From positions 106,721 to 170,720 of the forward strand of contig QPGO01000094.1 in assembly GCA_008632985.1 (NCBI GenBank): a DNA stretch of 64,000 nucleotides, written 5' to 3'. The position numbers and the translations under genes are program-made. The notes beneath the pieces are model-generated. The model was not told where the DNA came from. It ran no database searches and saw only the letters and a list, made by a program, of their open reading frames with translations. Origin of the DNA: Psammoneis japonica (taxonomy: Eukaryota). How positions within the stretch are numbered: position 1 is the stretch's first letter; each line of letters starts with the position of its first letter. Shown here piece after piece: positions 1 through 30,738 of the stretch.

Positions 1-162
1 AACAAGCTCGACATGGGTCTTGGCAATCCAGCCAACAATGCCAACAGGGCCCAAGTCTAAACAGTCCACATGGTTTGGTGCCTCAGCTGGGTCACAGAGA
101 TGGCACTTGCATTCCATCTTCTTGACCTGGTGAAGATCTTGGATGCCGTCTTGGATGCTCAG

Positions 163-1023
163 TTAAAATGACACAGAGCCTGTGTCATCCGGCAGCATGC
201 AGTCCATCTGCATGATCTTGACCAGACACAGAGTTTTGGTCACAAGCTTGGTGCAATTGTGGCCAGGGTGGGACTCAAGCAACAAAGCCTTGAGCTTGTT
301 TTTGGCAGACTTAACTTCAACAAGAGCACTTTTGTCACAACCATCCAGGACCATCATCAACAACACTGACCCTGGAAGATCTTTGAAGTTCTTTGCATGG
401 GTGAAGTTCACTTTCATCTTCTCGCAGAACACTTCTGTGATGCAAGTCTTGTCAAGCAGTTGTGAGAGACTGATGTCATCTGTCTCATGCTGCTTGTAGC
501 CTTGGTCACCAGAAGCCTTGGAATGAGTCTTGTGTGCTCCTTCTCAGGGTCGCTGACAGCAATGGCATGAAGACAGACAAATGGGAACATGACCTTGCTG
601 TTAGATTTCTTGAAATGGCAGAAGGTTTCCTGCCCATGTGACTCAATGAGGTCTTGGATGGTCTTGACAAAGTCTTCCTTGTCCAGTTTGGCACTTGGAC
701 CATTGGATGGCTGGATTTGACCATTGAACTTTGAAGCAGTTGATGAGGTGACTTGTCCACAAAGGGTTGGCTCAATGGATCCAACCTGACTCTGCTGACA
801 ACAAATGATCATCATCAGGACAATCCTTCCTCACATGCCCAACCTCATTGCATTTCCAGAATTTGATCTGCTTCTCCTTGTTCTGCACAAAACTTGCATC
901 CTCAGGTTTCTTCTTGTTCATCCTGCAGGCATCCAACACCTGCAGTGCCTCCTTGCTCAAATTGGGACAAATGTCAAACCCCAGTGAAAACTGTTGATGC
1001 AGATCTTTCAAATGACATGCCAA
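163..1023 (-). mobile_element. Degenerate gag-like retrotransposon relic
   Basis: Zinc-knuckle-like KFWKCNEVGHVRKDCP (ORF 772-1023), plus gag-like helical fragments in ORFs 414-815 and 163-432; heavily mutated. Confidence 0.35.
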
Positions 1024-4000
1024 TGTTCCTTGGTGCCATCAGCATCACCGCTGACAACTTGTTCCTTTCTTCTTTGTTCTGGGTGCACCATCATCAGCAT
1101 CCTTGCCAAACCCATCTTCTTTCTTGTGATGAGTGGCCTTTGCACATTGTCAAACAATTGCATTGAATGCCTGTGCCTTCTGTGTCTTCTGTGTCACACT
1201 CTGTTTTGCATGGTGACCACATTGCTTGCCCCAGATTGCCTTGTCCTTCTCCAACGTGGTGTCTGCCAATGGATGCTCTGATGCTTTTGGCTTGCTCTCC
1301 TGCCTCAGAGACACCAATGTCTTCATCTCCACCAGCCCAAACATTCTTCCAAACACACTTGCTGATCTTCCTTGTGGCTTTTGTGCAGCCATCTGCCTGT
1401 CATCCCAACTTGGCAATGGTGTCATGCACCCAATCCTTTTTAAATCTTTTGTTCTTCTGCACTCAGCTGTGTCCTTGCCCATGTTTTCTGGGACTTGTGT
1501 TGGAGCATCACAGCTTGCCCACAGTCTTGTGCTCAGTCTCGCCAACCCCAACACAACCTTGCCTCACCCTCTTTCAGCAGATCTTTGGCAGCTCTTCTTC
1601 AACAGGAAGGCCCTCAAAAGATTGTTTCTCTGCCTTCATCCAGCCAGCTTGTTTGCCACAATCTTCCAAGAAAAGAAGTGCTTTTGGATTCCTGTCAACT
1701 TCCCAGCCTGCCTTCACCTTTGGATTCCTGATGCCTTCCCAGCCTTTAAATGTCACCACTCCTTTGGGTGTCATGCTGTGACTTTTTGGCTTCTGTGTTG
1801 GAGTTTTGTGGCTGGCTCACCAAGGAGTTCTTGGAAGTTGGTTGGGGATGCAGGGGGTCTGATGTCCATTGTGGCTTGTGACATCTGACAGGTCTGCAGA
1901 GGGCATTGGCAGGCAACATGCTTGGGTGCAGAGAGGCAAAGACATGGGTGCTTTCATTGTTTGGGATGAAGTGGATGGGGTTGGGGAGGTGGCAGACAAT
2001 TTGTGGCAGGCTTGGGGTTGATGGGTGTGTGTTTTCAATTGTGCAGTTTTGTGTCTGCAAGTTCTAAAACTCATCTGTTCTGTTTGTGTGCAACACACCA
2101 GGCAAGTTGACATCAATGCTGCTTGGGCAATTTGTGTCATCCATGCTGTTGCCAATGGAGGAAAATGTTGGCATGGACAGCGGGGCTCCAAGTGAGTTTT
2201 GGGTGGTGTGCTTGGATTCTGGGGGCACACTTTGGCTGTGCTCATCAAGGCAAGGTTGTCATGTGGTTGCAGTTGAGAGTTGTGTTGCAGGGGGTTTGCA
2301 TCTGTCAGGCACCAGTCATGAGGGCTCACAGAAATGCCATGTGAGCTGCCTGCCTGTGCTGGATTCTGAGTTTGGCTGGGCTTTGTGGTGGTGTGGCAGG
2401 AAATGTGATTCCTTGGAGAGTTGAAGCTTCTGTTGAGTTGGGGCAGACCCACCACAGGTTGCTGTTGGTGCTGATTTTGCTGGTGCCATCATCAGCATTG
2501 TTGGGTGAGAGGGTCACATCCTCTGTTGTGGTTGTGGTGTCACTGAAGTTGATGCTTGGCTCTTTTGAACTGCTGTCGTGTCTTGGAAAAAAAGAACTCT
2601 GTTGGAATGAGGTTTGCAGTTTGGCTGTCACCGCTGGACAAGCCATGTGAGTTGATGGCCAGGAGGGTCTGGTGGGAGATCAGCAGTGGAGGGAGACTGT
2701 CACAGCTGGAGGCAGAGCTTGAGCTGGGTTTGGAGGCACTTGGGCTTGGCGGGGCTTCACGGTGCTAAAAGGGGCAGTTGGCTCCAAAGGTGGTGAGACA
2801 CAATTGCATGGCTGGGTGGTGTCTTTTGCATGTTGTTGTTCCTCTGGGTTGACAGCATCTGTTTGATTGGCTGCTCAGATTTGAAGAAAACTGAGGCTGC
2901 TGAGTGTGGGGTGGCAAATGCTGCAACAGGTGGGCAGACCTTGGGAGTGATGGAGTTGGCAAGTGACACTTGAGAAAATTCTGTGTCCATGTTTCCCACA
3001 ATGTTGCTCCTGACAACTGGCTTGGCATCAAAGTGAATTTGAGTTGCAGGTCTGGAGGTTCACAGTCTGCCAGTCAAGACACTCACCAAGCTGTTTTTGA
3101 TTGGCCTGAAGCACACCAAGGGCATTGTTGCCAAAGCACTCTTTGCAGGGCATTTTGCATTGAATGACAGAATGGATGGCATCAGGTGGCATGACTTTGT
3201 TTTTGTTGGATTTGTTTGTGATGTCTGTGAAGTGGGTTGAATGGATTGGGTCCGTCTGACCATTCTGGGGAGTGGACAATGTCCAGGTGCTTTTTTGCAG
3301 CAGACAAGTGCAGGCTGCTGAGGCATCCAGTGTCATCTTCAGCAGGCTCATTTGGCTCAGCATTGGAGTTGCTGTTTTTTTCCTCAGCAAAACTGACATC
3401 ATCATCTTGGCAGTTTGGGGCAAGGTTCAAGAGGTGGCACACATTGTCAATGATTGCACATCTTTGGCATCTGGCTCCTGCTGCCACCAGAGGGTGGCAA
3501 CAATTGACACAAAGCACAGGTCAGTGCTGTGTGCCATCTGTGTTTCAGTGCTGGTGTTTGCAGCAGTTGCTGAGTTGTTCATCTCATCTCATCTGCATTG
3601 CAGCATTTCCAGTTCAGTGCAGAGATGGCTCCAAGTTGTTGGTGTGTGGGGAGAATGAGATGGAGCAGCCAGCATCATTGCCATTGTGCTCACTCTGCAT
3701 CATCCAGGCAGGTTGATTGCCCACATTTCCACAGGCACTTCCTGGGTTTGGCACATTTGGGGTGGTGGTGAGTGCTTGCTGCATCAGGCTTGGGGGGTGG
3801 GCATTGTGGGTGAAGAAGCAGGGGCATCAATGTTGCAGGTGAGGGCAGGGGCAGCAATCTGAGCCCTTGGCATGGTCTCCAGTTTGGCGTTGTTGGTTTG
3901 AAATTTTCTCTGAAGATTGCCAGTGCCTTTGGGCTGTTGCATTGTGGGCAATTTTGAAACTTGTGGTTTGAATCCCAGCAACAGAAGCATCCATGGAAAT

Positions 4001-6697
4001 TGGTTCATCCACCAGTGGGGTCAGGCATGTTGAGGGAAGGTCTGAAGCAGAAGTTCCTTGGATTCACTGGCAGCTTGGAGGGGTTGTTCCCAAGGTTTGC
4101 TGGGGGTTCTGGCTGTTTGGCATGATGCTGCAATGTCTGCTTGGCATGGGACTGGAGTGCTGGGGAATTGCTGCAGGCGCAAGTGTCATCAGGAAAGTTG
4201 GGTGGCTTGGGCAATTCTGATTTGGTGGATTCCATGAAGAAGTTCATTCCTTGAGTGGGGTTTCTTTGGTTGCCTGGTGCTTGTTTTCTCATGATGCTGT
4301 TGGCGGCACTTGAACCTTGGTGTCAGAGCTTGTTGAGGGATGTTTTGCTTTTGCAGGCTGCACTCCACAACTGCTCAAGTGCTGCGAGCTCTTCTTGTTT
4401 CAAAAGTGTGGTGGAGGAGCTTGGTGGGGTGCAGCCATCACTTGTGAGTTGTTCCCACTGGTTGAAGCTTGGAGATTGTTGTGAAACACAGCAACAACAT
4501 TTGAGTTCCATGCAGATGCAGCTTTGTGACAGATTGGTGCTTGGCCTTGCCATCTCATCCTCGTGGTGCCTGAGAACTCTTTCACAGTGGAGGCACAATC
4601 TGTGACTTTTGTGATGACTTGAGTGTGGGCTGTTTTGTCATCTTTGCCAACATGATGAGGTTGGCACTTGACCACAAATTTGTCATGAGAGCAGTTGTCA
4701 AGGGAGATTTCCATGGAGGATTCCATGGCAGAGCATTCCCTGGCAGTGATGAGGATTGGTTGTGGGGCTTTTCCAAAGCAGTCTTTGAGCATTTTGCCAT
4801 TGTCCAAGAAGGAGAGGTTGCTCACAAAGGTTCCTGGGGTGATCTGGTTGCCTTTGTGGTTGTTCACCCTGGTGTCAGCTTTGTTTTGCAAACTTCTTCT
4901 GGGTTCTGGTTTGTCAAAGTGAGTCAGGAAAGCACGTGTTGCATCTTTGGGACAGAAAGGTTGGATCTGGTCATGCTGAAGACATCTGCTTAAAGAATGG
5001 GGTCATTGTCCTTGGCTGCAGGTGTGTTGGTGGCTGTGTTGCATGTGTTGGTGGGCAGAGAGAGGCAGAAAGCAAATTGTGCAGTCCTTTGCTTTGGGTG
5101 CAGTGGCAACGCACTTGATGGGTCAATGGTGGGTTGAACTTGAGTGTGGGTGGTGATGCCATCATCATGGAGCAAAGGGCTGGGGTTGGGGATGGGCTGT
5201 CACAGGCTAGCCTTTGTGAATTAAAATGAAATTTCAGCAAGGTTTTTGGGATGAAAGAGCTTGGCACAGAGTTTCTTGTCTCATGTCTCCTCAGCTCAAA
5301 GGGTGGTGAGGGTGCTGGAGAGGGAAAAATGACAAGAAATTGCTTGAATCTTCTTGTTCAGAGCAAGGCAGTGGCTGACAAGGTCAAGTTGTTCCAAGAA
5401 TTTGTTGAAGGCTCAGTGTCAGCCAGCAACAGGAGCTGTGATGTCAGGGGCTTTCTGAACTTTGACAGAGACATTCTTGTTGCCACCAAGTTCTTGCTGC
5501 ATGAAATGAGTTTTCTGCAGCACCTGCACACTGCCATTTTAGTGCCCAGTTGCTGTTGTCATCTTTTGAACTCTGCAACACATCTTCGTTTTGCATTTGA
5601 CACAGTGCTCTCTTTTGCAGTCATGGCTTTTGATGATTCCCGGCAAGAAGGTGCGCTGTGTGGGCAAACCTCTTTTTGACTCATGTTGGAAGGTTTCCAT
5701 CCTAGAATTTCAAGTGCTTTTCCAAGACAGCAACACTTCTGGGCTTGAGCTTCTCTTGCAGCTTTTCTCTCAGATCAAGCACCACAGGGCTCAAGCTGTT
5801 GACAACAACTGCATCAAAACCAGAAACGTCAACTTTCTGCAGACTGTGCAAGATGAAGCTGGTCAATGACCAATTGGAGACTGGACAAGTCACCAAGCAG
5901 CAGCCCAAAGCAAGGTGCAGCACTTTGGACAGAGGTGAAAAAACAATGCAGAAAATCAGGGATCATTGTCAGTGTGTCACTTTTCATGTGACCACAGCAC
6001 AAAGTCCCTGGAAAGGACCAGAAATCAAAGAAACTCACAAGGGTTTATTTTGCATCCAATGCCAACAAAACCCTCTCCAGCCACTCAAAAGACAATTCAA
6101 CAGTCACCACTGCCAAGGTCAACAAACTTCAATTTTCAATTTTTCACCTCAAGACAATGCAACTCTTTGGAGATGAGCAAGTGAACTGGTTTTCTTGGTT
6201 GCAGAAATGCAGAGTCCATTCTCTTTTGAAAGGTTGGAAGACTTGCAGCTCCTGCCCCCACCACTGATGACAGGAAGAAGGCTGAGAAGAATTCCCAGAT
6301 TGAGTGCAAAGGCACCTCAAAGTGCAGCTGCAAAAGACAGGGTGCACTCCAACTCCAGAATCGCCAGCCATCTCAAGCAGCTCTTGGCCTCACCTTTCAC
6401 TTCCCTGTCCACCCTGGTCAAAGCCCACCAGGAAATCAAGCCAATGTTTCAACCTCTTTGTGACAATGATGGAAAAAGAACCCCATGAACAGTGCACCAA
6501 CCCTGTTGTGTTTGCCATGTTAAGATGCATCAAAGTGCAACATGCTGTTTTTTCCAAATCAGGGACATTTGAGTCCAATCAACTCACTCGACTGTCGCAC
6601 TTTGTTGTGGTGAAGTTTCAGCCACACAGGCAGACACCGGGAATGCTTGGAGCAGCCAGCAGCATGATGTGGCAATGTTCACAAACAAATGAATGTG

Positions 6698-6916
6698 CCC
6701 ACAAAACTGAAAAATTTGCTCACACAAAAAATCGTCAGAAAAAAAAAACTGGCACATCTTTCAAACATTCACGATCACCCACAAAACTGAAAATTTTGCT
6801 CATGCAAAAAATCATCAGAAAAAAGAAAAACTGGAGAGATTTGCAGACCACAAATGCACACCCACAACTGAAAATTTTACTTGCTAAAAAAATTGCCAGA
6901 AAAAACAAGAGCTGGC
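6698..6916. repeat. Three degenerate ~80-bp tandem copies of an A-rich unit
   Basis: cacaaaactgaaaa(a/t)tttgctca...aaaaaatc(g/a)tcagaaaaaa...ctgg at ~6700 and ~6780, with a more diverged copy at ~6863. Confidence 0.7.
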
Positions 6917-9900
6917 AATGGGGGTCATTTGAAAATGTCGCGTCAGTCACAACCAGTTCTTTGCATGAGGAAAAATGCAAAATCATGTGGAAATGTGCAC
7001 AATGTCAAGCAAGAAAGTGATCAGAGCCAATGACTTTTCAAGAACTGAGCTGAAACATCATCTGATCAATGGCGCTGGCGCCTTCACCATGTGAGTCAAA
7101 ATGCTGTTGATCAGTTGGCCATTCAGCTGATTTCCTGAGAAGAGCTGTCGACATTCAGATGAGGGTGGATGGACAAACCAACAATGGTTGTTTTTGGCGC
7201 AATGTCTCTGAGGATCCCCAAGCAAAAATCATCAGAAGCAAAACAGCAAAGGAGAAAAATTGGCATCACTGTGATGAAAGAGTGCTGTGGCACAAAAAGG
7301 TTTTTTGGCCCTCCGATCTTTGACAGCACTTGGCCCTGAGGACAATTTCAGGATGAAAGCTTGTGGATGCAACAAACCAGAAAGTTGCAGGTGTGTGGCA
7401 AACTAAAAAGTTCAGCTGCCAATGGAACAAAAACAAGCTGCTGAACTCAGCAACACACCAACAAGCAAAATCAATGTCATTTCTCTTTGTGAAACAAATC
7501 TTGATTTGAGTCCTGACCAACAAACAATTGGTGGAGTGCAGGCACATTTTGAAGCACATGTGTGTGCCTTTGCTTGTTGTTGACAGATGATGCCATGAGC
7601 ATGCAAAAGGAGCCGTTTGAACATGTCAACATGGACCAAGCTGATGTTGTCCATCAAGTGAGTTCTCTTGTGTGATTGCATTGTCGGCATTGTTGTCATC
7701 ATGTGTGTTTTGATTTGTGCTCATTGTCATCTTTTCCAATGACTGCACTTTTGCATTGCATGCTCAAGGAGTCATGAACTGCTTTGCAAAGAATGCTCTC
7801 AAGCATGTCAAGAACAGCATGGAGGATGCCCTTGGTGGTGGAATGCAAGGTGACACCAGCCATTCATTGTGGTGCAACAAGACCAAGGGTTGGAGGAGAA
7901 CAGTGCCTTCAATGTTCTTGTTGTCATTTTTGCAATTGCTGTGCTTTTCTCAACTTTCAAACAAAAAACAGTGAGTCAAAACACATGACAGCCATTTTTC
8001 ATCAGAAATTTTGATTGTTCACAGCATCACAACACAGAGACCACACAGTTGTCACAAGACCCTTGTTTTCTGCTTTTGCCAATGATGCTGGTGGCATCAA
8101 GGACTGGCATTTGATGGGAACCTCTGTTGAAAGCAAAGGCCCAATGGGATGAAAGTCACAATGATGCTGCCAATCAGGGACTTGTTTCCTCCAAGAAAAG
8201 CAAGAAGAAGAACTTGGATGTTTTCAGAATGGGTGGAGGATGATGGGAATGAATCAGATGAGGACACATTTTTGGATTGACCACTGAGTGACTTTCATGG
8301 CTCTTCATGATGGCATTCATGCAAATCCTTTCTCTGTGCAACCCCAGCAAGGTCCGCACATGTCATTGTGGAGACAAGTTGCCTCCATCAGAAATGCCAA
8401 AAATCTCTGTCTGGCACTGATTGTTTGCTTCATGATTGGCAGATGCTGGTTGCTGTGGATTCTCAAGGACCCCACCTTGACAGTGCTCTGTGGTGTCACA
8501 GTGATTCCAAAAGCAAAGATGCTTTCTGTTGTGGTGGTGTTGGCTGCATTGGCTGGCATTTGCAATTGACTGCTCAACTTGGACATTGAGCAACACAAAC
8601 TCTTTTGTGTCTTTGGGTCCTTCTGCTTCTTCTTTTTCTCCATCATTGCATTTTTGCTTGTGGGTGGCAAGATTGGTTTGGCCAATGACAACCCTGGCCT
8701 GACTTGCTTGTTGCTTGGGATGGATCTGCTGTTGCTCCATTGATCCTTCATGAACTCCAACTTTTTTCACTGGAAGACTGCCAAGGCCAGTTGTGGAGTC
8801 CAATGGTGCATGGTGGCCACGGCCCAAGTCAGAAGTGTGTCCTTGGCCCCGCAGTTGCAAATCAACACATGACCCAACTTCTCATTCATGGGGTGGCCAA
8901 AGAAGAGCAAACTGTTCTGGGACCATCATTGCGTCAAGGCATTTTTGCCATTTCATGCACAATGCGTGCTTCTTTTGTTGTGCATCATTTTTGTGCCATT
9001 TCATTGAGTTGGTGATGCCCAGTGCATGAAGCTGGCTGTTTGTGTGCAGATGAAGACTAAAGGCCAGACTGTTTGTGTAGATGTCATCACATTGGTTGGA
9101 TTTTTTTTGCAGCTGTGAAGCACGACGCAACCTCGGTGAGTCAAGAATGTTTCAAGCAGGCAGCGCTGACAACTTCATGTCTCTGCATTCTGCACTCCAT
9201 TTCAACATCCATCACAAAAAACTCAGATGTAAGATCATGATGATTGATTCATTCAACCAACATCAACAACCTTCAGTGACAACAAAAATGGCAACATTTG
9301 TCTGAATTTTGCAGTGGCTGACTTGCAATCACTTCATTTGGCAGAAAACAATGTCTTCATTCAATCAATTTCAAATGGTTTGACACAACAACAAAACCTG
9401 CAGGAGTGCATCAAAACAAGCAGTTGCTCTTAATCTCCCATTTTCATTTCATCAACTGTGCTGCAACACAGACAGTCATTGATCTTGAGAGCAATTTTTT
9501 GTTTGTCCTTGTGAGTGCACAGTTTGAAAGAATCTTTCACTTGTTTGCACAAATGTTCATGGGGAGCCCATCAACAAACAAATCAGACAGTGATCATTTT
9601 TTCTTGCACAAAGAGCACTGACTGTCGAACCAGCAACAAAAGCTCTCATGCCACAAGACATGTGCGCAAACAACTTCATGATGCACTGAGAAAAATGCAG
9701 AATTTGCAATGGACTGCCATGTGTTTTTTGTGCAAGTCACCATGACAGTGTGTGGTTGTTTTTGGCAACTTCTTTTGACTTTGAAACTTTGGAAGTGATG
9801 CAAATCGTGACAATGTGAAGCCAGCATATTGTGCTCCAAAGGATTTTGCAGGTCTTGAAGAACTGCCAGAAAATCAGTGCACGCTGGGTTGCCAAAATGG

Positions 9901-12900
9901 ATCTTCATGACACAGAAATGATTGCACAAAAGATGACATGATTGCAGCAGATTTGATGGTGTCATTTCAATGTTGGGTGCCTTTGTGACAGGGGGAGGGG
10001 AGGGGGGCAAACAGCCTGAGAAGAGGGTGAAAAAGCTTTCTCCTCCCAAAAGTTGGCTGCAATCTTGACAAGTCTGTGGATGCTGCATGCACTGAACAAA
10101 TGAGAAATGAATCCTGTGGACTTGGTGCAATGTGACAGTTCCAATGGAGGTGTTTGCATTTCCAAAGATGTTCATCATCTTGTGTGTGGTTGTCACTTTG
10201 GGAGTTTGCTTCTCATTGAGAAAATGTTGTTCCCTGGAGCATGGGCAAGGCATTGAAAAAAACTTTTTTCTTCAATGCTTTTGATGATGGAGTTCAAGAC
10301 AATTGTTGTGCATGACTGCAAACAACATGTGAAGAAAGTTGGTCAGAAACCAGCCCAGAGAAAAAGGAGATCACAAATCATTTTCAGAGCAGCAGCTGAC
10401 CCAGAGACACGCTCTCATCCCAGAAGTGTGTGGCGAGAGTTGCTGCCAGGCAGCCAGTGGTGAAAAGCCTTGCACACCACCTCTTCTCAGCTTGGTTTTG
10501 CCTGTTTGGGGACTCCCCAAAATGGCCAGGACAAGGGGGAGAGTTGCTTTGCCTGTTTGGAGAAAACCCAAGAAATGAGGGTGATTTTGTGAGAAGGAAC
10601 ACCTGAAAGGGGTCAGGGGAGGGGAACAAACCCAAATGCAGTGCAGCAATGTGCGGCAATTAAGGCCAGGTGGGTGTGCATTTAGACTTGTGAACTCTGT
10701 GTGAATGTGTGCGTGCATGTGTTTGACGACCATGACTGATGCATCAACACATCAACACAAAGCGGCCCCTTGTGGTGGAGCAAGAAAAGAGTGAGCATTG
10801 CCATTGAATCATCCACATCAACATTGCTCATGTGCAGCTCTGTTTTTGCCTTGGCCTTTGCTCTAGAGCCCTTGTGGTTTGCATTTGTGACCACACAACA
10901 CCAGAAGAAAAAATGATGCTCTGCACTCTGCACAAAAGATGGGTCAAATGGAAGAACAAACATTGTCAATCAACCCACCATGTTTTCATCAGTCATGTGA
11001 GGTTCTAATTTTACCTCTGCTTTCACTCTAGATGCCTCATGGCTTGCATTTGTGAATGCATGACAAAAGAGTGATGTGAACGATCCACTTCATTCTGCAC
11101 ACAAGGTGCGTCATTCGGATCAATGAGGGCAACTGCTCAATCTGCCACATTGTTGTCATCAGATGTGTGTGGTTGTGCTTTTGCCTTGGCATTTGCTGTG
11201 TGCCTTGTGGTTTGCATTTGGGACACTGCACAACAAAAGAACACAACTGAAGATCAGCGGCACTGGTGTTCTGCACACAATCCATCACAGGTGTGGCTGC
11301 TTCCATCTCATCTTGTGTTTCATGCTGCAAATCCCATTCAATCAATGCCATTGAATGCATTAAATGGTGTCATGATGGATTGACAAAAGTTGTCACAAAT
11401 GGGACTCAAAAGTGCCATGGTGTGTTGCACCCTTTTTGTTTGTTGCGGTCAGTCACGTGTGGGGCTTGTTCACACGCCCCCCGCACGCAGAAGGTGCAGA
11501 AAGGCATGAGAGGGGAAGCACAGGGAACTCCCAATGTGCAAATTTTTGTTCAAGCATCAAGCACACGTGTGGCACAGTGTCATTTGTGGCAATTCCCTGG
11601 GACTTCACACTTCCCGCAGAAATTGCAGCAAAAAGTGGCAATCCCAGGAAATTTTGGGAAATCCCGTGGCAAAACCAAGAAACTGAGCAGCACCTCTTCC
11701 AGCAACATGAACAACATTGGTGGACCCTTCATGTGTGGCATTGAAGTGTGCACACAACACAAGCAACTGCACACAGGTGGCAGCAGCCAAAGCCCCCCCC
11801 CCCCCCAACGTTCTTTTTGAGTGACAGTGTTTCCTCTCTCCTGCTGCCCCAATGTTTTTCAGCTGATTTCCAAACTCAAAAGCACCTGCCCTCTAACATC
11901 TGCTCTGGAACATGACATGCATGGATCACATGCAGTCTTGTTGGCACCACTGTTCACAAAACTCTGCCACATGTTGTCGTTGTGGTGGATGCGGTGCGAG
12001 AGATTAGATGTGGCAGCCGCTGAACCCAACAAGGCCAGACAGATGATTGAGTCCAACTGGTCAACTCAAATCGATTGTGTCTTCAGCTCGTGCTGGAAAA
12101 CTTGGCGATGCAATTGAATCGTGATGTCCATTGTGCACACTTTTCCCACTTGGAAAGCATGGGCAAATGTGTCTCTCACAGGAATTCAAACAGCCCCAAC
12201 GCTGAGCTCGTGCTTTTTGGAGGCTCATCCTGTCTGTCCCATCAACAAATGGGCGAAGCAAGAAGCAACATGATTTTTGTTCTCACTTCTCATTCAACAG
12301 GCACTTTGTGAAGGGAAGCCAGTGCTGATTGGTTGCTCTTTTGTCTGTGATCATTGCATGGAAAGACAATGGTGGTGCAAACATTTGACGCTGATGCGGC
12401 AGGCCGGCGGTCAAATGCTGGTGCTTGCCAAAAAGAAAGTGTTGGATTGGGATGAGTGGCGCTCACCCATGATTCTCATTGGGTGCGGCCCACCCACACA
12501 AATGTCACATCATTCTTGTGCATCAATCAAGAATTGATCCAGAATCCTTGAGTCAGGACTGGGTTGAAAAAGGACTTGCTGCTTCCCCCCCTAAAACTTT
12601 TGTGGCTCTGCAGACGCCTTGCCAAACCTTTGTGTTTGGACTGTCAGAGATGGGCGTCTTGACCTGCATGTTCTTTGTGTTTTTTGTTTGCTTTGCCCTG
12701 TCATGCAACCAAAAGAAACTCACAAACTTGTTGTCTCCTTGCATCTCTCAACAGATTGTCACACACAGTGGAGGTGCAGAAGAAGAAGCTCAACGGATGG
12801 AGATGCTTTTGAGAATTTGGGAATTGCATTTTTGGATTGAGCTTGCATTCACATGGACCAGTCTTGTGGAGGAATTGAAGGATTGTTTGGAGGAGCAGGA

Positions 12901-12948
12901 AACAGTCCAGTTGACTGCTTGGGATAGAAAGCAAGCACTGGTGCACTT

Positions 12949-13460
12949 GTGGACGCTGTCAAGAAATGGCTGAAATTCAACCGCAGGACTGACAAGAAGG
13001 CAATGCGCGATCACACGGGTGGCGGCTGCAAGGAGATTAATCCCGCCTCGTGCTCTGGAAAGTTGAGTGCGGAAATGAAAGGCCATGTTGACGCCACAGT
13101 GAAAGTGATGGGCAAGTCTTGGAATTGTCCAGTCTTTCAGGGTGCAGTTCACCGGGGTGCACCAACATTTGTGGTGCACGTTTCAATTCGTTGCATCCTG
13201 GAGCCACCTTCATGGACCCGGCTTTTGTGAGTGCCTCTCTGAAAGAGACTGTTGCTTGTGGCTTTCATGGAAGCAAGAAGAACGCACTCTTCAAAATTGA
13301 AAGTGGATTGGGTGTGGACGTGACAAAAGAATCCAAAAGCAAGGCTGAGTCCGAAATTCTTTTTTGACCTGGTGCTTTGTTTGTGATCACGGCGGTTGAG
13401 GAACACGACGATCCCGAGTGCACAAAATGGAAATTTGTTTCAATGCAAGAGATTCATTAA
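12949..13460 (+). pseudogene. ADP-ribosyltransferase (R-S-E clade, VIP2/C3-like) pseudogene
   Basis: Reads RDHTGGGCKEIN...PVFQGAVHRG (frameshift) ...FMDPAFVSAS...LFKIESGLGVDV...AESEILF*PGALFVITAVE. Reverting CA/TG to TA gives DYTGGGY, VYRG and STS; ExE is intact. Confidence 0.75.
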
Positions 13461-14334
13461 TTTTGATGGTGAGAGACAAATGGAGCTTTGGATTTGTGCG
13501 ACAAATGGCAAACAGAAAACTTCCCGCTCCCTCCCTCCGGAGGTGAGGCCATGGGGGCCCATGTGGCATGGACGGGAGTGCTCATTCCCATCGTAGAGTG
13601 TGTGTTGTGGTGTGGGAAAGTGCGCTGCTGTTCACATTGTCAGAAGTGATGGCATTCACATTTACAGAGAACTGTCATTCGCTGTTTATTTGCATGCAAC
13701 CTCTCCTTGTGTGACATGGCTTCGCGCCCAACCTGTTGCACAGAATCCATCTTGCGGCTCGTCTTGCATTGCAATCTCCACAGTGTTCCAGGGGTGGCAA
13801 CATGTTTGGCACTTGGTGAGCAACTCCAGCAACTGCCAGCAGGAGCAAACTGGCTAAAGTTCTGGACTCAGTGAAGCGGTGGTCAGCAACTCTGCCAGTG
13901 CAGTGGTTGACGCGGCTCATGCACCCTTTTCCTTGTGACGAAACTTCAACATCAGGAGTCAGTGAGTCACTGGGCTCTTTTGAATCCTGACAAGATCTCA
14001 CAGTGTGCAGCAGTTGGGACAACGTCTTACATGTCACCAGAACCACGCAATGGCAACGTTCCCATTTTTTAGAGTGGCAACACGCAAATCATCATTGTTG
14101 TCTTTTGTCAACTTTTGTGTTCATTTGAAAGCCATGTCTGTTCAACAGGGCCCTGACGTGCATGCAATCTTGTGCACCTCCATGACACAGTGAATCTGCC
14201 ACCACAGCATTTCTGTCTCCGCAAGTTCAAATTTTTCTGTTGCCCGCTGCCAGCTCTGCACAAACCTGCAGTGCCTTGTGAGCCCTCTCGAGTGGAAAGC
14301 ACAGAACGAACCATGCGTGCCGCATGAACAGGGC

Positions 14335-14470
14335 CCTCTACTCTCTAGAGTAGAGCTGGCTGCTGCTCTCTAGAGCTAGCTAGAGTAGACTCTCTATCTA
14401 GCCACCACCGGCACTAGCTAGCTACTGTAGCTGCTAGAGCCATTCTCTAGAGAGAGAGAGAGAGAGAGAG
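14335..14470. promoter_or_regulatory. CTAG/TAGAG-rich cluster with an (AG)11 tract upstream of MGD
   Basis: Many ctag, tagag and tagctag motifs, AG repeat at 14449-14470, about 280 bp before the ATG. A regulatory role is inferred from position only. Confidence 0.4.
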
Positions 14471-14751
14471 TGCCGCAGCAGCTACAGTGGCCGCCAGCCA
14501 CGTGGGCGTGCATCGCCGCATTCCGCATTCCGTTTCAACATCCATCACACAAAAAACACGAACGACGCATCTACCGTACCGTATCATAGCATATCATCAA
14601 TCATCAACAACTTTCAGTGACAACATCGGCCCTTCACCCTTTGAACTTGTTGGATTCGCTGGCCTCGTCAACGGCTGTAACCAAGTTGTCTGACGTGAAG
14701 TCTAATCACGCTAAGATCATCGTTGCTGCTTCTCTACTGATAGTCTGAATC

Positions 14752-16253
14752 ATGTTGTTCGCTGCGTCGCTGACGCTTCTCGCTATTCAACAGCCCTGCC
14801 ATGGTTTCCTCCCTGCCTTCTCACAACGAGCAGCGCAAACAAGCCGGAAACTTTCGCATCCTCTCTTTGCCACCAAAGGCAAAGACGACGCTGAAGTATG
14901 TACGATCCAGATTCTCATGTCGGATACCGGCGGTGGTCACCGAGCCTCTGCCAACGCGTTACGTGATGCGTTTGATGTGCTACACCCTGGAAGAATTGAA
15001 TGTGATATCGTCGACATTTACACCGACTATGGACCCTTTTGGCCTTACAATGACTACGTCGCGCTGTATAAGATTATGGCGGAATACTCCTTCCTCTGGG
15101 AAGCTTTCTATCGTTTCGGAGAAACAGAGTTTGGTTTGTGTCTCAATGAAATCATGCTTGAGACGTTTTGTTTCGACTCGTTCAAGGAGTGCATGGCCCG
15201 CCCATCGGGTTCTACCTCATCAAGAGCAGACATGGTTGTGTCTGTCCATCCGCTTTGTCAAGATATTCCACTAAAGATTTTGGCCGAGCTCGATTCCAAT
15301 GGGAAAACTAGGGATCCAAAAACACGGACTACTCCCTTTGCAACAGTCGTGACGGACTTGGGTGGAGCTCACCCAACTTGGTTCAACTCTGGTGTTGACA
15401 AGTGCTTTGTGCCCACTGATGTACTTTATCAGTGTGCTCGCGATCGCAAAGTAGAGCCGTCACAGCTTGTTGAATATGGCTTACCAATTCGCAAAGGATT
15501 CTGGGCGTCAGAAGAGAAACCCGCAAAAGAGGGAAGTGGGGACGCGAAGGAGAGAAAGGGCTTGCGCGAAGACCTTGGTATAGACCCAGACCTCCCCACT
15601 GTGTTGGTCGTAGGAGGCGGGGACGGGATGGGTGGTATTGTTGATATTGCCAAGTCTCTTGGAAAGAAGTTGGGGGAAAACAGTGAAACCCCCTCCTATC
15701 AGATGGTGGTTGTCTGTGGAAAGAACGAAGATGCGCAAAAGAGGCTGAGCTCGACTCAGTGGGAAAAGGGTATCAAGGTAGACGTGAAAGGATTCGTATA
15801 CAATATGGACGAATGGATGAAAGCATCTGATGCTCTCGTCACGAAAGCCGGACCTGGAACAATTGCAGAAGCATCCATTTGCGGCCTTCCTTGCATGCTG
15901 TTCTCGTATCTGTATGTTTTTCTTGTTTCTTTCTCTTGAACAAAATTCTGATGTACATGCTCTTGGACTCACACCTTTTTACTATTGTTTAAAGGCCCGG
16001 GCAGGAGGAAGGGAACATTCCCTACGTAGAGACGTCTGGTTTTGGCAAGTACAGTGGTGATCCGAAGGTCATAGCCGATACGGTCAGCTCGTGGTTGTCG
16101 TCGCCAGATAAGATGGAAGAAATGAAATCTGCGGCTCTAGAAGCTGCTCGTCCTAAGGCAACTTTGGACATTGCACGGTATTTGGCGGAGATGGTTTTTG
16201 AGGCAAAGGAGAAGCAGCAGCAACAGCAGCAGGAGGCAACAATGCAGACCTAG
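14752..16253 (+). CDS. MGD: Monogalactosyldiacylglycerol synthase (GT28), probably plastid-targeted; exons 14752-15911 and 15995-16253
   Basis: Motifs ILMSDTGGGHRASA, VVSVHPL, TVVTDL, VGGGDGMG and TKAGPGTIAEA. Removing GT-AG intron 15912-15994 restores SYLPGQEEGNIPYV. Signal peptide is followed by G-F. Confidence 0.95.
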
Positions 16254-16988
16254 TCCTTTCAGGTTACTTAAGTGTGATTGCTATCATTTCCGTAGTTGTT
16301 GCCTTGTCCCCAATTTGTACAAAAGTAGTTTACTGCCTCATGCAAGAGCTGCCCTCTCGCGAGATGCCCCCTTGGGGAAGCTAGCATTAGCTAGGTATGG
16401 CGTCCGACACCTGAAAGACGCTTGAGTAGCTAGAGTACCTATCATACTCTACACTTGGAAGACAATAAAACCTGGAGAAAGGAAGTGCTGGGCATGACGG
16501 AGTTCTATAAGTAGGGCCCTACTTTTTTATTTTTTACTAGCATATTCATAAATTTATCGCAGAATACTTTCCGCGATCGAAATCTGGCTGGAGGGGTGAA
16601 AAAGCACATCTATTTATGGAACAAACCAGATTTAAGATGATTAGCGTACAGAGTACCGTAGTTGCAAAGCTAAGTGACGGTTTTCTCCTACAGTAGCAGA
16701 CCTGAGTTCCCCAACATAGCAAGTAGACAAAAGCCACTGATCTCATCATAAGACTGTTTGATGTACGGGACTTTTGTGATAGATCACTACGTTCAGTGTC
16801 GCTTCGACCAGCTTCTTGCGGTATGGCAGATAAAATGATCCTTGAATTTCTCGGTGGCTCTATCCGGCGATACTAGCGTCTAGCATACGTTCCTCCAAAA
16901 AGAATGTCTGCTAGGAACGCAAAGCACACCAAACTCCAACAGGATGTGGTCCATTTTCCGTCGTAGAGACTAGTAATTGATGGTCTCG

Positions 16989-19156
16989 CTATGTACCAGA
17001 CCAGCGCCGAAGAAGGTTACTGATAGCACCACTTTCAGAGGCATTGGCGAGTAATGCTTTGTCAAGTCTTTCGCAGAGGTGAATGCCTGCTTCGGCATGA
17101 CCAGCTGCATCGCAACATTGCATCGCTTTTGCGGCCGCAGAAGCTAAGACTTCTTGGTCTTCTTTAGAAAGAGGTGTTTTGGCACTGGAGATGGAGTGTG
17201 CTGCTGCCGTGATACGGTGAATGTGGCGATGTGCGCTTTCCCAGCTTCTACCGAGTGACGGGTCCGACTCTGTTGAAAGCGATAATGCGTAGCCGTAGCA
17301 TTGTTCCGCGTCAGACCAGCGCTTGAGCCCATGATTGTTCGCATCGTTGAAATTCTCTTGAGCACTCACTGCAATTTTATAAAGGGTGGCGGCATGCCCA
17401 CTGCATCCAACGCCGCATAGAGAAACCATCAGGGATGTGAGGATCTCCTCACCGCCGCGTACCCCCACCACCAGAGGTAGCAAGGACTCTTCAAGCGTCA
17501 GGTTTCCTCTTTCAGAACTCAGTGTGCCAGCTTTACTTCTGTCCATAGAGTACATGGCGACGTCTACAAGGCGACCACAGAAAAGAGCCATCCCGAAGCG
17601 ACCAGCGGCGTTACAATTGCGCAATACAGATGCTACAACGCCCCCCATTTCCGAGTGCCACGACAAAGGATCCTTGTTGTCATCAGTATCAAGGTCAAAT
17701 ATGTCATCACCAGCGACAAGCCAGTTTGGATAGTCGCATTTATCAATAACGGTGCATAGAACGTTGATGGCGGCTTCCCAGTTCCCGTCCCGTTCGCACG
17801 CTGTAACAACGCCTTTCAGACCGTCGACGCTCAGCGGTCCGCCATCCTCAATTTCTCGGAACAGTGTCATTGCTTGACTGCTCGCATCTCCCTTCTCCAA
17901 GGTAGCGCCACCCAAGGCTCGCATCGCCAAGTCCCTTATTAATGGACCGATGGCACCCGATCCGCCGCCCCATTGCCACTCGCTTTCTGCATCGAAATTG
18001 TCGTCCAACAATTCCACATACAACTCTAATGCTTCATCATAACGAGAGCATAGGAGACAAGCATGCATGGCAGCAGCAACAAGTGACTATAAGACAAGGA
18101 TGTCAGTGTAAGGTATGAAAGAAAACAGCTGTGTATATCAAAAAGTCAGTTCACACACCCTTCCGAGTCTCTCACTGTTGTAGCTAGTCCTAAGGTATCT
18201 GATGCATGAATCCCATTCTCCAACAAGCCCCAATGTCACTCCAGCGGCCATTACATCTTCAACGATAGAAATAAGAAATCAAAAATAATGAAGGTAAGAA
18301 CGATTCTCTCAAGCTCATAGGCAGCGACCGACATACAGTACTCGTGACTCACATTTATGTTGATCCGTCGGCGACACCATGGACATTTTTAGAACAGCCT
18401 CCATGACCTGTTCTGTTGCGGCGCCTCCCTCCTTCTGAGTCTGACGTGCTATCGAGTAGAGACCAACTGGATCTTTGAACGATGTGGTCATGGGTATGTA
18501 CCCCGAGGCATCAGGGTCGATCTGGGCCCAGAACAGATCTGCGGCTTCCTTCCACAACTCTTCGCGCGACGCAGCAAGCACAGCACATTCATAGTGATGC
18601 GGCTGTATGTCGAGATTCCATTCCTTCAAAAGTCTAAAATCTCCAAACAGAGTCGGAAGGGAGATCGTTCCATTTCTTCGAAGTGCGGTGTGGAGGAGAA
18701 AACCAAAATTGTTTCACCAAGAAAGTGAGATAATTCGCGGCCATGCTTCCCAGATGGACTAATAACACCCTTTTCAACGGATTCCCGAACAAGACTTAAA
18801 AGACTCTCGGTTTTCTTCAAAAGCTGCAATCGTTCGGAATGCTCTTTCGAATAACTCGCATGAACCCAGGGAGGTGGCATGGGCTCAAGTTCGAGCGCTT
18901 GACGCCGCAACGAAGCGATTTCGTCCGTGGCTTCTGCCATGGTTGGAGAAGACGGATTTCCCTGGCCTTGCAAGCCGCTTCCATGGTGTCGACCCTCATT
19001 TGTTTCACTCTTGTTGCGTTGCTGCGCCATGCGATAGAGCGGTGGTCCATAATAAGTGGCCTTCGGTACGATGAGGTGGGGAAAAGACTGTCGAAAGCAC
19101 CTCCTTGACGCGACCGGACGCCTGAGTTGGCTTACAGAGCCCCGGCATCGTTGCAT
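16989..19156 (-). CDS. Multi-exon alpha-solenoid (PPR/TPR-like) protein with an apparent 1-nt frameshift at 18628-18631; 3' end uncertain
   Basis: ORFs 18626-19156, 18315-18629 and 16989-18068 join through two GT-AG introns flanking a small exon (YVMAAGVALG...ERLGR). PPR-like phrases: HYECAVLAASREELWKEAADLF and VVTACERDGNWEAAINVL. Confidence 0.7.
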
Positions 19157-19692
19157 CCTTGTCTATGCTGTGCTCACGGCTCACGGTTGCCTTTGCGGTG
19201 TGTTTCCAGTGGACCCAGCCGCCGCTCGCTCATGGCTTTCGAGCTTCGAGCTTGCGCCTGAATGACGTTGTGCTGTGCTGCCTGTGCTGATGCGCGCGCG
19301 GTGTGCTGTGTTCATTGCCGTCCGTCCGTACACCCTTCAACCCGATTCTACAGGAACTGTCCGTCCGCCCATCGGAGCAGTGAGGCGACGACAGCCGCAA
19401 TGGCAATGGCCGACCGCCGACCGCTCTCTCTAATACGAGTAGTAGCTATCTACTCTCTACAGTAGAGAGTAGAGAGCTGATCCTGTCTGTGTGAAACAAC
19501 TAAACTGAGCTCGTAAGAAAGTGATTCATCGTTGGCATCGAGGTTTGCAGTATCGATTCCCAGTGTTCTGGTTAGAATTTTCGTGCAACACAGAACATCC
19601 AGAACCAGCAACATTCGCGCATCTCGTCATATGCGACTTTCTTGCAACGCTTACACCTTTGGGCGAAGTGGAGGGAATTTCTTTTGACTGCC

Positions 19693-20570
19693 ATGAGATG
19701 TCTCTTCGTCTTGGCTTTGTCAGTGCCAGCTGTGTCATGTTTCTCCTCTAAAACGGTACCGGCGCCTACCGGTACAACATCGGTGGTGTTCGATAAACGC
19801 ACCCGATTTGCTCGGAGGTCGAAGGCAGTGGCGTTTGGTGGGGCAATCACTGAAGGCAACAACAGGGGCGAAGGCCTGACAGGACGAATTTCTCGACTTT
19901 GCAAAAGTTATTCGAAGAAACTAAACAGAAAGCCGCTCGTAACGAAGAGCGTCACATCGGCTGTCGTGAGTGGACTTGGGGACATTTTTGCTCAGTGGCT
20001 TGAAGCGCACGCGGCAGGGAATGGATTCACGTTGGATTTTGCTCGCTTCGGTGGTTTCACTTTAGTGGGGGGATTGTATGTTGGGCCGTTTTTTGAATTG
20101 TGGTATTCGCAACTGTGGAAATTAGGAAGGTGGATGGAACGTCATCACGCCTTGTCAAAGAGGTTGCAGACAATAGCACAGGTTTTTGTGGACCAAACCG
20201 TTGGTGTGGCTTTATTCTTTCCGCCATACTTTTACGTCTATGAGGCTTTTGAATCCTTGATGGCGCTGAGGGGTAAGGTCACGGCCTTTGAAAGTGCAAC
20301 CGAGAAGAATCTGTTACGAAATTGTGCACTAACGTCATTTTGTTTTTCTTTCGTCACGACTTGGAAAAAATTTTATGAACAGTTCCTGTAATGGCGAACG
20401 CTTATTTGAATTTGAAGGAGCAGATTGCGTCGGTGCTTTTGATGCAGTACTATATCTGGCCCCTGGCAAACTGGATAAATTTCGCCTATGTGCCAGAAAA
20501 TCTTCGTGTTCTGGTCAGCAACGTTGTCGCCGTTTTCTGGAATGCACTGTTGTGTACCCTGGTTGCCTGA
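19693..20570 (+). CDS. Mpv17/PMP22 family membrane protein; exons 19693-20272 and 20383-20570
   Basis: KPLVTKSVTSAVVSGLGDIFAQ and VDQ; after intron 20273-20382, WPLANWINFAYVPENLRVLVSNVVAVFWN. N-terminal signal MRCLFVLALSVPAVSC-F. Confidence 0.9.
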
Positions 20571-21379
20571 TTCTTGCAAAGCCTCCAACAAGCTAGCATG
20601 CGTTCTGGTTTGTTTATGCCGTAGCTTCTTTGCACGACTTGGTACACTGGTCTCTCAAATCTTCATCTTGACTGCCTCTCAATACCAGAGATGAGCTACT
20701 GCACCTCAAATAGACCTACGCTACGTCTCATTTCGGCGTTTAAGTTTGCTACCAACAATACAGAAAGAGGGGGGTGTATTCAAGCCACTGAGATAGCCGT
20801 CGCCGATCCTTGCATTCTTGTTCATCTTGAAAGTAGAAAAGAGGCGTTCAATCTTTTGGAGGGCGCTGGTTTTTCCAAGTCGAATCCGTACTTTAGTACA
20901 ACAGGGCAAAGTACACGTGCTCTGTACCATGAGTGCTGGCAAATGGCTCGCTCTGCTCAAACAAGTGGTGGGGTCGACTCTCTATGAAGCGGCTCTAACA
21001 GGAAAATCTCGATCGAGTCACCTCTTTGCCACTAGACCGCCTCGTGACGGAACCGTCAACCTTCCCGACGGTCCCGATGTTATGTCTCTTCTCGAACATG
21101 TATTCGTTACGTCCCTTAAGTCTTCTCGGCTATGCGTCATGTCTTTTCCAAGAGACTCTTGGCTCGCAGTGTCGGTGTCGTTTACACTTGAGCACTCGGT
21201 GCAAAATGGATGCCATTACCTTGGAGGGTGACTTGTGCGGCCTTAAGGGAGCCTTGACGGGCGGCTGTGCCGCTTTCGCGCACACGGGCCAATGCGTCCC
21301 TCTAGAGTAGCAAACGGAAAGGGAGTGCCAGGCCGCCAAGAACAGGGCGCAAGAGATTGATCATACCCCCACCAATCTC

Positions 21380-21678
21380 ATGAGCGAGTTGCAGCGGTTA
21401 GAAGCCAGACAAGCCGATCTCAACCACATTCTGACCGATTTGGAACGCAAGGCTGAAACGCTGCAGCACGACATTACCTCGCGCATCACTCTAGCCGACA
21501 AGCTTTGAAAAATGGATTTCCTGGCGTTGGAACGTGACATGGACAGTTTGGCCAAGCACGTGGAATGGTTGCAAGAAAAAAAAATGAAAACCGAATGACC
21601 GCCACCTTGTCGGATGAGGAGCGTGCGACGCTCCAAGAGCTCAAGCCTTCGCAGCAGGAGCTTTCCAAGAAGCTCTAA
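21380..21678 (+). pseudogene. Coiled-coil coding fragment with an internal stop and a frameshift (copies at 37366-37664 and 60239-60537)
   Basis: MSELQRLEARQADLNHILTDLERKAETLQ...KL*KMDFLALERDMD...; the same lesions are present in all three units. Confidence 0.35.
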
Positions 21679-21950
21679 CGTCAGGGGAGCGTTGTCGATC
21701 ATCTCGGGCGTTGCTTGTTGAACCGTTGATTGTAAAAAAGTAGGCCTACGGAATGGTAGTTAACAAGGGAATTCAGGGTAGAACACGTAGTAGACGGCGG
21801 CTTGCAGAGGAGCCGCAAAATTTGCAAAATTGAACTAAGATGACAGATTCAAAGATGGCAAATTTTGACAATATGTAGCTAAGTAATTTAGAAACACACA
21901 GGTCGTACCAAATACCCACCTTTGTTGTTCCCCGTCTTGCTAAAAGGTAC

Positions 21951-24900: not shown

Positions 24901-24995
24901 TGCTCCCCCATCGGATAGTAAGATTCAGCAGAGCCGGCATTTCGACGCTCTGACAGATTTTCCGGCTGCGAGACGCTAGCTCTGTTCGAAGACAT
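21951..24995 (-). CDS. 1014-aa protein with a disordered N-terminus and three copies of a putative zinc-binding CxHC...H...C domain
   Basis: Long intact ORF. Repeats: VGLRCIHC...RAVCYP...HFQHC, VGIGCIHC...RAVCFP...HLGEC and IGVKCKHC...HVMSC. Confidence 0.9.
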   Translation of the reverse strand: MSSNRASVSQPENLSERRNAGSAESYYPMGEHSEYPNLSKYPSPIDQKQDTSYPRPTPSTPRRLQAVVTSSFSIDDERDDLNTNSRAYRSERAVEHRYESRGDGRHLAESVRQDDHWHPYENHNVASGREWIPRSTGNEPVKIPPSPAEAPPVSYVGEEAKDKGPEKLKRNFWHHSRPGDEYQTQHIHPAFIPPKRMKLKEDSRREYKTMIPRGTRGDLDMRNRYNLTHFGGAPQDFAMWDQHGAHPSTSERRERNREASVSWNKPRDESMGSHEHSFYPAARSQSSVGSRMRISGRQHESDRDQGWGSSPWYPSPTSPNYRNRNEYWGGSFQGSDIQARDEVGALSTLSNERYNNSGIPFSLSLESSVQRQVTFDSNGGESDKMCHNVVQSVPTSTHSRPLCDPTPIELLRQASMTSTGMYSYMDGAHPSKESHETAKVNSTNQSLLLLAQAEDRISLSETLCVIRENIEVFTATTSDVEAPAPGRKHPVVVGQVGLRCIHCRHTERTSDRVKRAVCYPSSIKRIYRTVIDMKLDHFQHCRFVPSSLKEHLEELKAVKTRSTGTTMQYFVKSATKMGMIDGPSGVRFKAGEEPTVTRPLANSTSKISPSSSSDGSSSSPQKMVRGNDDTASKEEKEKSSEGNAMDMSPQALHSILSALSSDSSSYAPSAQDEGSTTTDFTGKIKLSLSEDKMALSPLRCFLRENVCAFSATEEDIAVRTPTTFSVVLGQVGIGCIHCHSLPAKERSNRAVCFPFSISRIYQSVADIQRFHLGECKMVPQDIRQRFLSLQSASTKGSKGLATRHYWITSAKKIGLVDTDKGIRFSRDPSTPTAPAVSLDILAQVASDVTSVSQPLVLPEDRNCIADFLYVVMEQLQPCRFTEADRNKRRLKDVGCIGVKCKHCAGQVESRKFFWSSVNAVESNFVSVHTHVMSCEFAPPALKTHLAELKKLRKEQTNRLKTGSQKAFFARVWKRLHGEDNKAVTAEDSNRNQDESASVPEVVDSAVNETSLYAV

Positions 24996-27290: not shown

Positions 27291-27349
27291 GTCAGCATGG
27301 TTGTCATTTCAAAACATTTGTTCCAACTCCAGCAGCTGACAATGAGCGT

Positions 27350-30604: not shown

Positions 30605-30738
30605 CATTTAGCTTTCTTTGTGTCGAAGTGGAAATGACACTCAACGATTTACACTGACCATTTAGCTTTCTTTGTGTCGAAGTGGAAATGACACTCAACG
30701 ATTTACACCAACCATTTAGCTGTACTTTGGCTCGAAGT
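30605..30738. repeat. 54-bp tandem repeat, two copies plus a partial (copy at ~46587-46720)
   Basis: catttagctttctttgtgtcgaagtggaaatgacactcaacgatttacac at 30605 and 30659. Confidence 0.9.

Follow-up and report, generated by a model that had tools for sequence, protein, structure and literature searches.

The 64,000-nucleotide (nt) stretch of Psammoneis japonica DNA analyzed here (contig QPGO01000094.1 of assembly GCA_008632985.1, positions 106,721 to 170,720; hereafter the window, numbered from its first letter) carries a recognizable ADP-ribosyltransferase (ART) domain within an island of at least 14.3 kb that is depleted in TpA and CpG and enriched in TpG and CpA. The initial annotation, prepared from the letters alone, had proposed at this place a hidden toxin-type ART gene killed by a process acting on TpA and CpG, with catalytic motifs that could be restored by reverting that process. 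We are confident that a real ART gene stood here and that it is now dead. No continuous open reading frame (ORF) spans the domain, the two halves of which lie in different frames, and on the strength of a frameshift and an in-frame TGA we class the locus as a remnant and not as a working member of its family (Table 1).

The identity of the domain can be read without altering a single letter. The C-terminal piece (13170-13457, with the TGA translated as X) matches Pfam ART (PF01129) at 32.5 bits (E = 7e-8), above the curated cut-off of 22.3 bits, and falls slightly below the cut-off of ADPrib_exo_Tox (PF03496; 22.9 bits against 23.4, E = 5.9e-5). A six-frame reading of 1-14400, with X at stops, returned ART as the sole family with E < 0.01. 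The N-terminal piece and the ORF upstream of it, each searched alone, had no Pfam match at E ≤ 1. A family profile of 267 positions, built from 29 natural single-domain relatives, recognizes both halves of the domain: nt 12943-13161 match at E = 9.7e-15 and nt 13179-13454 at E = 8.7e-31, and the two matches are colinear. The initial annotation had tied its claim to a match with an ART profile, which the unaltered C-terminal piece provides, and the R-S-ExE layout that it described is upheld, with the motifs at invariant columns, albeit spread over two frames. The colinear match to the whole domain and the shared C-terminus place the remnant in an uncharacterized family (P0004 to P0064) known only from environmental assemblies.

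Table 1. Features of the ART remnant and its immediate surroundings, in window coordinates (3n, 3n+1 and 3n+2 denote the position at which codons start)
Feature	Position	Strand	Remarks
TA/CG-depleted, TG/CA-enriched island holding the remnant	1..14330		dinucleotide observed/expected ratios in 500-nt windows
Upstream ORF, third frame	12473..12970	+	3n+2; includes acceptor-like site at ~12753; membership in the gene unsupported
ART remnant as a whole	12943..13460	+	recognizable R-S-ExE domain
N-terminal half of ART domain	12943..13161	+	3n+1; family profile positions 101-172
Decayed NAD-site helix motif (DHTGGGCKEINPASCSG) and VHRG strand	within 12943..13161	+	from alignment to the family
D-H-T-G-G-G-C (gat cac acg ggt ggc ggc tgc)	13009..13029	+	3n+1
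V-H-R-G (gtt cac cgg ggt)	13147..13158	+	3n+1
Catalytic Arg codon (CGG) of the R-S-E triad	13153..13155	+	intact; aligns with invariant R125 of P0004
Frameshift zone	13162..13178	+	17 nt for 5 profile positions; frame 3n+1 to 3n
C-terminal half of ART domain	13179..13457	+	3n; Pfam ART and family profile positions 178-265
S-x-S motif (S-A-S; agt gcc tct)	13230..13238	+	3n; invariant S150 and S152 retained
E-x-E motif (E-S-E; gag tcc gaa) of the ADP-ribosylating turn-turn loop	13347..13355	+	3n; intact; invariant E187 and E189 retained
In-frame TGA	13365..13367	+	3n; column of invariant Arg (R193 of P0004) in the LFRP motif
TAA stop	13458..13460	+	after VSMQEIH; where family members end (...V.MEE[IL]x-stop)

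The stretches quoted in the initial annotation, including all of the motifs, the TGA and a cag at 12753, were found where it had placed them. No reversion is needed to recognize the catalytic Arg, the two Ser and the two Glu; the Arg codon is a surviving CpG, and the ExE motif is intact, as had been stated. Of the 31 columns that are invariant in nine intact members the remnant keeps 26; the five exceptions comprise two columns lost to the frameshift gap, the TGA and two substitutions. The alignment of this TGA with a family-invariant Arg is in keeping with the suggestion that it is a decayed CGA. The initial annotation had overlooked the frameshift. Forward translation puts DHTGGGC and VHRG in one frame and SAS, ESE and the TGA in another, and two colinear profile matches in different frames, with 17 nt available for five profile positions, place the lesion between the Arg motif and the S-x-S motif. 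The sequence there is one base short or two too long, the invariant columns L129 and P130 (P0004 numbering) are unreadable, and an intron would not fit into so short a gap, which also lacks GT...AG. Since VSMQEIH and the following TAA fall at the family C-terminus, the native stop is in place, and this TAA is one of the two TA dinucleotides left in the remnant.

Upstream of the domain the gene is lost from view. The initial annotation had ended an intron-like acceptor at ~12753, and a pyrimidine-rich run ending in cag exists there, but the 3n+2 ORF reads straight through it and no frame upstream of 12943 matches the N-terminal region of the family, so we do not retain the acceptor. This ORF gave a best E value of 0.72 in a phmmer comparison with 64 relatives, and the upstream frames reached only E ≥ 0.057 against an N-terminal family profile of 22 members, even with Z = 1. 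Because TA is gone and TGA is the only stop left, long ORFs in the island arise by chance. By eye, P0007 and P0012 show colinear likenesses to the sequence immediately before the domain, and a near-duplicated 8-mer at 12937-12952 could explain a second frameshift, but both were statistically unsupported and are not claimed.

The remnant bears the dinucleotide signature of its surroundings in its codons. Its 518 nt contain 2 TA, where about 22 would be expected from the adjacent normal zone (14331-20000; 236 TA in 5,670 nt), with observed/expected (o/e) ratios of 0.06 for TA, 1.54 for TG, 1.39 for CA and 0.74 for CG. At 82 columns with a majority residue the remnant departs from the family 27 times; 10 of these departures are forward changes, that is, residue changes explained by TA or CG becoming TG or CA inside codons, and 2 are reverse, while natural members (n = 26) each show 0 to 4 forward changes. 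At the codon level, with present-day flanks and contexts across codon boundaries taken into account, 14 of the 27 mismatches are explained in this way (9 TA-type and 5 CG-type), against 16 that can be reached by any single transition. Three of four conserved Tyr columns read His or Cys and four of six conserved Arg columns read C, W, H, Q or stop, compared with 0 to 1 in each natural member for either class (n = 26). There is no Tyr in the 166 residues of the remnant, whereas the 25 members that cover at least 133 of these columns have 2 to 6. On every signature measure the remnant is the extreme of 27 sequences, and we consider it highly probable that its decay was dominated by the island's conversion of TA and CG to TG and CA.

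The ART segment differs from the rest of the island in one respect. TA is lost in the segment, its flanks and the island core alike, but the CpG o/e of the segment is 0.74-0.76 (0.76 in 13001-13500), compared with 0.20 and 0.41 in the adjacent 500-nt windows and 0.03-0.2 in the core. This retention hints that the segment has had a history different from that of the core; it may have entered the island later, been under selection in the past or been less methylated.

The island itself extends past the left end of the window and ends on the right at ~14330, 870 nt past the ART stop. In 500-nt windows the TA o/e stays at 0.00-0.14 over 1-14000 and climbs to 0.52-0.61 farther on; that of CG is 0.03-0.35 as far as 11.5 kb, and TG and CA stand at 1.4-2.9, rising exactly where TA and CG drop. 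None of the 31 island ORFs of at least 110 residues (1-14088) contains a Pfam family, and besides ART the 14.4 kb give only one Pfam signal, a weak zinc knuckle of the gag type (zf-CCHC, E = 0.032) on the minus strand at ~815-860. In Pfam scans, no transposon or virus hallmark was found within 12 kb of the remnant or on its strand, and no pairs of long terminal repeats (LTR) or terminal inverted repeats (TIR) were found in 1-15000. A tblastx comparison with two other islands in the window gave only three matches of 10-18 residues at E = 7e-4, with no protein-level similarity. No paralogue of the gene was found within the window by tblastn, every non-self match having E ≥ 1.2, and defense-system profiles (PADLOC) returned no family for four proteins. 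Short tandem repeats occur in the island at 6698-6915 and 10828-11241, with periods of ~80 and ~165 nt and 67-81% identity. About 420 nt past the island edge begins an uninterrupted frame of 396 codons for an MGDG synthase (14749-15936, plus strand; MGDG_synth, E = 1.5e-19), which has at least 120 relatives at 57-78% identity; all organism names among the matches listed are those of diatoms, including Seminavis, Cyclotella, Mayamaea, Pseudo-nitzschia and several MMETSP diatoms, which makes a diatom the most likely host and speaks against a chlorarachniophyte.

Other islands in the window lie at ~25.9-30.2 kb, repeated at ~41.9-46.2 kb, and at ~51.8-58.5 kb. Over the three kinds of island TA o/e is 0.02-0.1, CG o/e 0.06-0.6 and TG/CA 1.4-2.9, while the rest of the window has TA at ~0.5 and CG at ~0.9-1.0. 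The island at ~51800-58500 is a TA-depleted, Copia-like retroelement with plus-strand ORFs (gag_pre-integrs, E = 9.4e-6; RVT_2, E = 2.4e-4) that interrupts a tandem array between its second and third units. This array repeats a 16-kb unit ~2.5 times (20191-35804, 36176-51785 and 58568-64000) at 99.2-99.7% identity; since the copies keep normal TA outside the inner island, duplication by itself does not set off the process. Copies 1 and 2 differ by 33 substitutions, 3 alignment-edge ones having been dropped, and 22 of these lie in the 4-kb inner island (26391-30443 versus 42370-46425), where 9 have CG in one copy and TG or CA in the other. Two dinucleotides, 28632/3 and 28636/7, read CA in one of these 99.7% identical copies and TG in the other, as would be expected if a single ancestral dinucleotide had been hit independently in each copy once the duplication had occurred. 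A strand bias is also seen in the islands (windows within 2001-6000 and 56001-58500), with plus-strand TG:CA counts of 291:191, 256:181 and 289:191, compared with 404:402, and hence no bias, in normal DNA; for the Copia-like element the plus strand is the coding strand.

In an exhaustive HMMER search the C-terminal piece had 56 protein matches at E ≤ 0.001, 5 of them at E ≤ 1e-10, and the piece is 40-58% identical to the single-domain relatives; among longer proteins searched with it, none of 24 candidates reached E ≤ 0.001. Both ART and ADPrib_exo_Tox were found in 16 of the 18 relatives scanned, the other two (P0002 and P0017) being repetitive proteins. Four relatives (P0001, P0003, P0022 and P0026) are giant proteins of 1,231-1,814 residues with 3-5 consecutive ART domains, one of them with a Phage_Mu_F domain and one with a SAP domain. 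Family proteins have 110-420 residues, the common C-terminus and N-terminal extensions that are long, variable and poorly conserved. With P0004 as the query, all 14 matches came from ENA or JGI assemblies, where they lie on contigs 1-6 kb long, and a pattern-limited scan of IMG/VR returned only two distant relatives, at 26-28% identity. One metagenome contig (L003) carries a relative with an intact C-terminus and 51% identity to P0004, which adjoins an AIM24-family gene; the TA o/e of 0.57 and CG o/e of 0.97 of this contig resemble those of the window's normal zones.

The remnant is unreadable as one piece, and the fold of the family was therefore taken from a model of its closest intact relative, P0004 (223 residues; mean predicted local distance difference test score 80.4, built with 9 sequences). 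Its top PDB match is Vis (4xzk; E = 7.5e-11, TM scores 0.58/0.61), and the best matches overall are Vis, XopAI, Certhrax, C3bot1 and HopU1, with TM scores of 0.5-0.6, from which the family is predicted to have the ART fold. In the ESM Atlas, P0004 matches ART clusters that mix bacterial with rotifer proteins and so give no taxonomic guidance. The family profile, searched against PDB chains, gave the order Vis (4xzj; E = 4.9e-30), a PAAR-linked toxin (6drh; 4.7e-24), XopAI (6k94; 3.5e-18), HopU1 (3u0j; 4.2e-17), the 65 kDa virulence protein (2gwm; 1.6e-11), VIP2 (1qs2; 2.3e-11), ExoT (6gnn; 5.9e-11), a C3-type enzyme (4xsg; 3.1e-6) and rat ART2 (1gxy; 4e-6).

Vis, an NAD+:arginine ADP-ribosyltransferase toxin of Vibrio splendidus (4xzj, 4xzk and 4y1w), is thus the best solved relative both by profile and by the P0004 fold, and it shares the R-S-ExE layout. 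It differs in being a bacterial toxin at ~20% identity, while the family has its own C-terminal tail and long variable N-termini and the copy described here is broken. The PAAR-linked ART toxin with its immunity protein (6drh and 6dre), which we take to be the type VI effector Tre1, is the second-best profile match and ranks 14th in the fold list; it depends on a bacterial secretion system for delivery and comes with an immunity gene, and Pfam scans of the window found neither a PAAR domain nor a hydrolase-type partner. XopAI and HopU1 (6k93, 6k94 and 3u0j), at fold ranks 2-10, are type III effectors of bacterial plant pathogens, and nothing at this locus indicates secretion or injection. The initial annotation had likened the gene to VIP2 and C3 enzymes. 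These belong to the same superfamily, share the R-S-E layout and appear in the P0004 fold list, and to that extent the likeness holds, but both are more distant from the family than Vis, XopAI and HopU1, and the PAAR-linked toxin is nearer as well. C3 exoenzymes have QxE and modify Asn, whereas ExE in place of QxE marks the arginine-type ARTs, and it is this form that the remnant carries. The vertebrate ecto-ARTs, represented by rat ART2, belong to the Pfam family that the remnant matches best (PF01129) but are distant, GPI-anchored or secreted animal enzymes.

A process resembling the one recorded in the island has been described for Bigelowiella natans in a preprint (10.64898/2026.01.13.699255), which reports, from mutation-accumulation data, that two integrated viral regions mutate ~1,000-fold faster and that the changes in them are almost only TpA to TpG/CpA. 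The same source describes TpA-poor, TG/CA-rich clusters across the B. natans genome and an enrichment of transposon domains among TpA-poor genes; CpG appears nowhere in its main text. The likeness lies in the conversion of TpA to TpG/CpA inside regions with sharp borders, where TG and CA gain what TA loses, and such bounded loss with matching gain is what the window shows over 1-14000. There are also differences from that process as far as the preprint documents it. CpG is depleted here as well, to an o/e of 0.03-0.35 in the island core; changes are not confined to TpA, 5 of the 14 explained ART codon changes being CG-type; the host differs, given that the neighboring MGDG synthase is closest to diatom proteins; and the target may not be viral. 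A literature search, judged on its result lists, turned up no report of TpA-directed hypermutation in diatoms. Fungal repeat-induced point mutation (RIP) likewise introduces transitions locally and at particular dinucleotides, disabling genes, and is able to reach their neighbors. RIP creates TpA, however, while the island process destroys it. We infer that the mechanism may be deamination of A in TpA together with methyl-CpG decay.

Our preferred reading, to which as a whole we assign a probability of roughly 0.6, is that the locus holds the dead remnant of an arginine-type ART gene, that its decay was dominated by the island's signature and that the gene was a cellular paralogue. Judged by its family, the ancestral enzyme would have held NAD+ with the YTG..Y..N..LR helix and with the (Y)RG and S-x-S strands and would have transferred ADP-ribose to a target with the help of the ExE loop. 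The mutational and silencing process of the island, which has left nearly every TpA and most CpG there as TpG or CpA, would then have overrun this cellular copy; about half of its departures from the family consensus are such changes, including the loss of every Tyr codon. The present copy, with its halves in different frames and a TGA at an invariant Arg column in the second, cannot make the protein any more.

Several observations weigh against this reading. His occurs naturally at the Tyr column of VYRG in 2 of 26 members (P0034 and P0055), and P0004 has a natural His at the GY column as well as a natural S-A-S at the S-x-S motif. Single reversions at such columns therefore prove little and only the aggregate counts, which leaves the reversion logic of the initial annotation partly standing: the His and Cys at conserved Tyr columns make the remnant a clear outlier, but the catalytic Arg, Ser and Glu needed no restoring. 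One mismatch that the reasoning of the initial annotation would take in, Ser (TCG) for the consensus Leu of N.ALR, falls outside the TA/CG type of change, as does the frameshift, which may itself stem from an assembly indel. The process is therefore no more than a candidate cause of death. Either lesion may have come first; that the process killed the gene is plausible as regards the stop codon and less secure for the gene as a whole. Going upstream from the first matched residue, the 3n+1 frame meets a TAG after 18 nt (at 12925); the domain is preceded by no in-frame ATG, and neither a 5' end nor a start codon or a promoter was found. As for a cellular origin, the copy sits 870 nt inside the island, and the B. 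natans preprint (10.64898/2026.01.13.699255) ties such a process to foreign DNA.

It is on this matter of origin that the alternatives are closest. The ART gene could have been cargo of a mobile element or integrated virus that forms the island, mutated along with it as foreign DNA. The position of the remnant, the Copia-like nature of another island, the weak zinc knuckle and the prevalence of ART toxin domains in mobile conflict systems speak for cargo, as do the hypermutated integrated viral DNA and the transposon domains in TpA-poor genes of B. natans (10.64898/2026.01.13.699255). Against it stand the absence of transposon or virus hallmarks within 12 kb or on the same strand and of terminal repeats in 1-15000, the lack of protein-level similarity to the two other islands and the paucity of IMG/VR relatives in the pattern-limited scan. 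The intact relative on contig L003, beside an AIM24-family gene in DNA of normal composition, the long and variable N-terminal extensions of family members, the lack of Pfam families in all 31 island ORFs and the CpG kept by the ART segment, unlike the core, also point toward a cellular gene. On balance we lean modestly toward a cellular paralogue and regard mobile cargo as rather unlikely.

Two further explanations fare much worse. That the gene still functions, its frameshift being an assembly error or bypassed and its TGA read through, we consider very improbable, even though the catalytic residues and most invariant columns survive and CpG is far better kept than in the flanks. Such a gene would have to tolerate changes at Tyr and Arg columns that hardly occur in natural members; the TGA aligns with Arg, which, unlike Trp or Cys, would not hint at a variant code, and the MGDG synthase frame next to it has no in-frame TGA. 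The 17-nt gap offers no intron, and the domain has no in-frame start codon. Still less credible is the idea that the poverty in TA is native composition or chance and the apparent reversions coincidence. His or Cys at single Tyr columns of some natural members would allow it, but the remnant is the most extreme sequence by every measure, forward changes outnumber reverse ones 10 to 2, TG and CA are raised exactly where TA and CG are lowered, and two dinucleotides are CA in one tandem copy and TG in the other at 99.7% identity.

Beyond the preferred reading of the ART copy itself, we offer a broader hypothesis that we hold tentatively and at somewhat less than even odds: that the diatom runs a local genome-editing process, similar to that of the chlorarachniophyte B. 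natans, in which TpA to TpG/CpA conversion is coupled to CpG decay and which can engulf cellular genes beside its targets, a process active after a very recent tandem duplication and strand biased in places, with the ART gene as collateral damage.

The pseudogene itself is of minor importance, being one dead copy of a known enzyme superfamily. It serves, however, as an internal control: conserved Tyr and Arg columns of a well-defined family have changed in the predicted direction, which shows that the islands' poverty in TA and CG is mutation and not native composition. It also points to an uncharacterized family of small arginine-type ARTs in marine eukaryote-like sequences, whose nearest solved relatives are bacterial toxins and effectors. 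The TpA-directed signature, so far described in a single 2026 preprint on B. natans, is now seen beside a diatom-like gene and coupled to CpG loss. If the collateral-damage hypothesis is true, the signature would be regular enough to allow the recognition of genes that have lost every Tyr codon.

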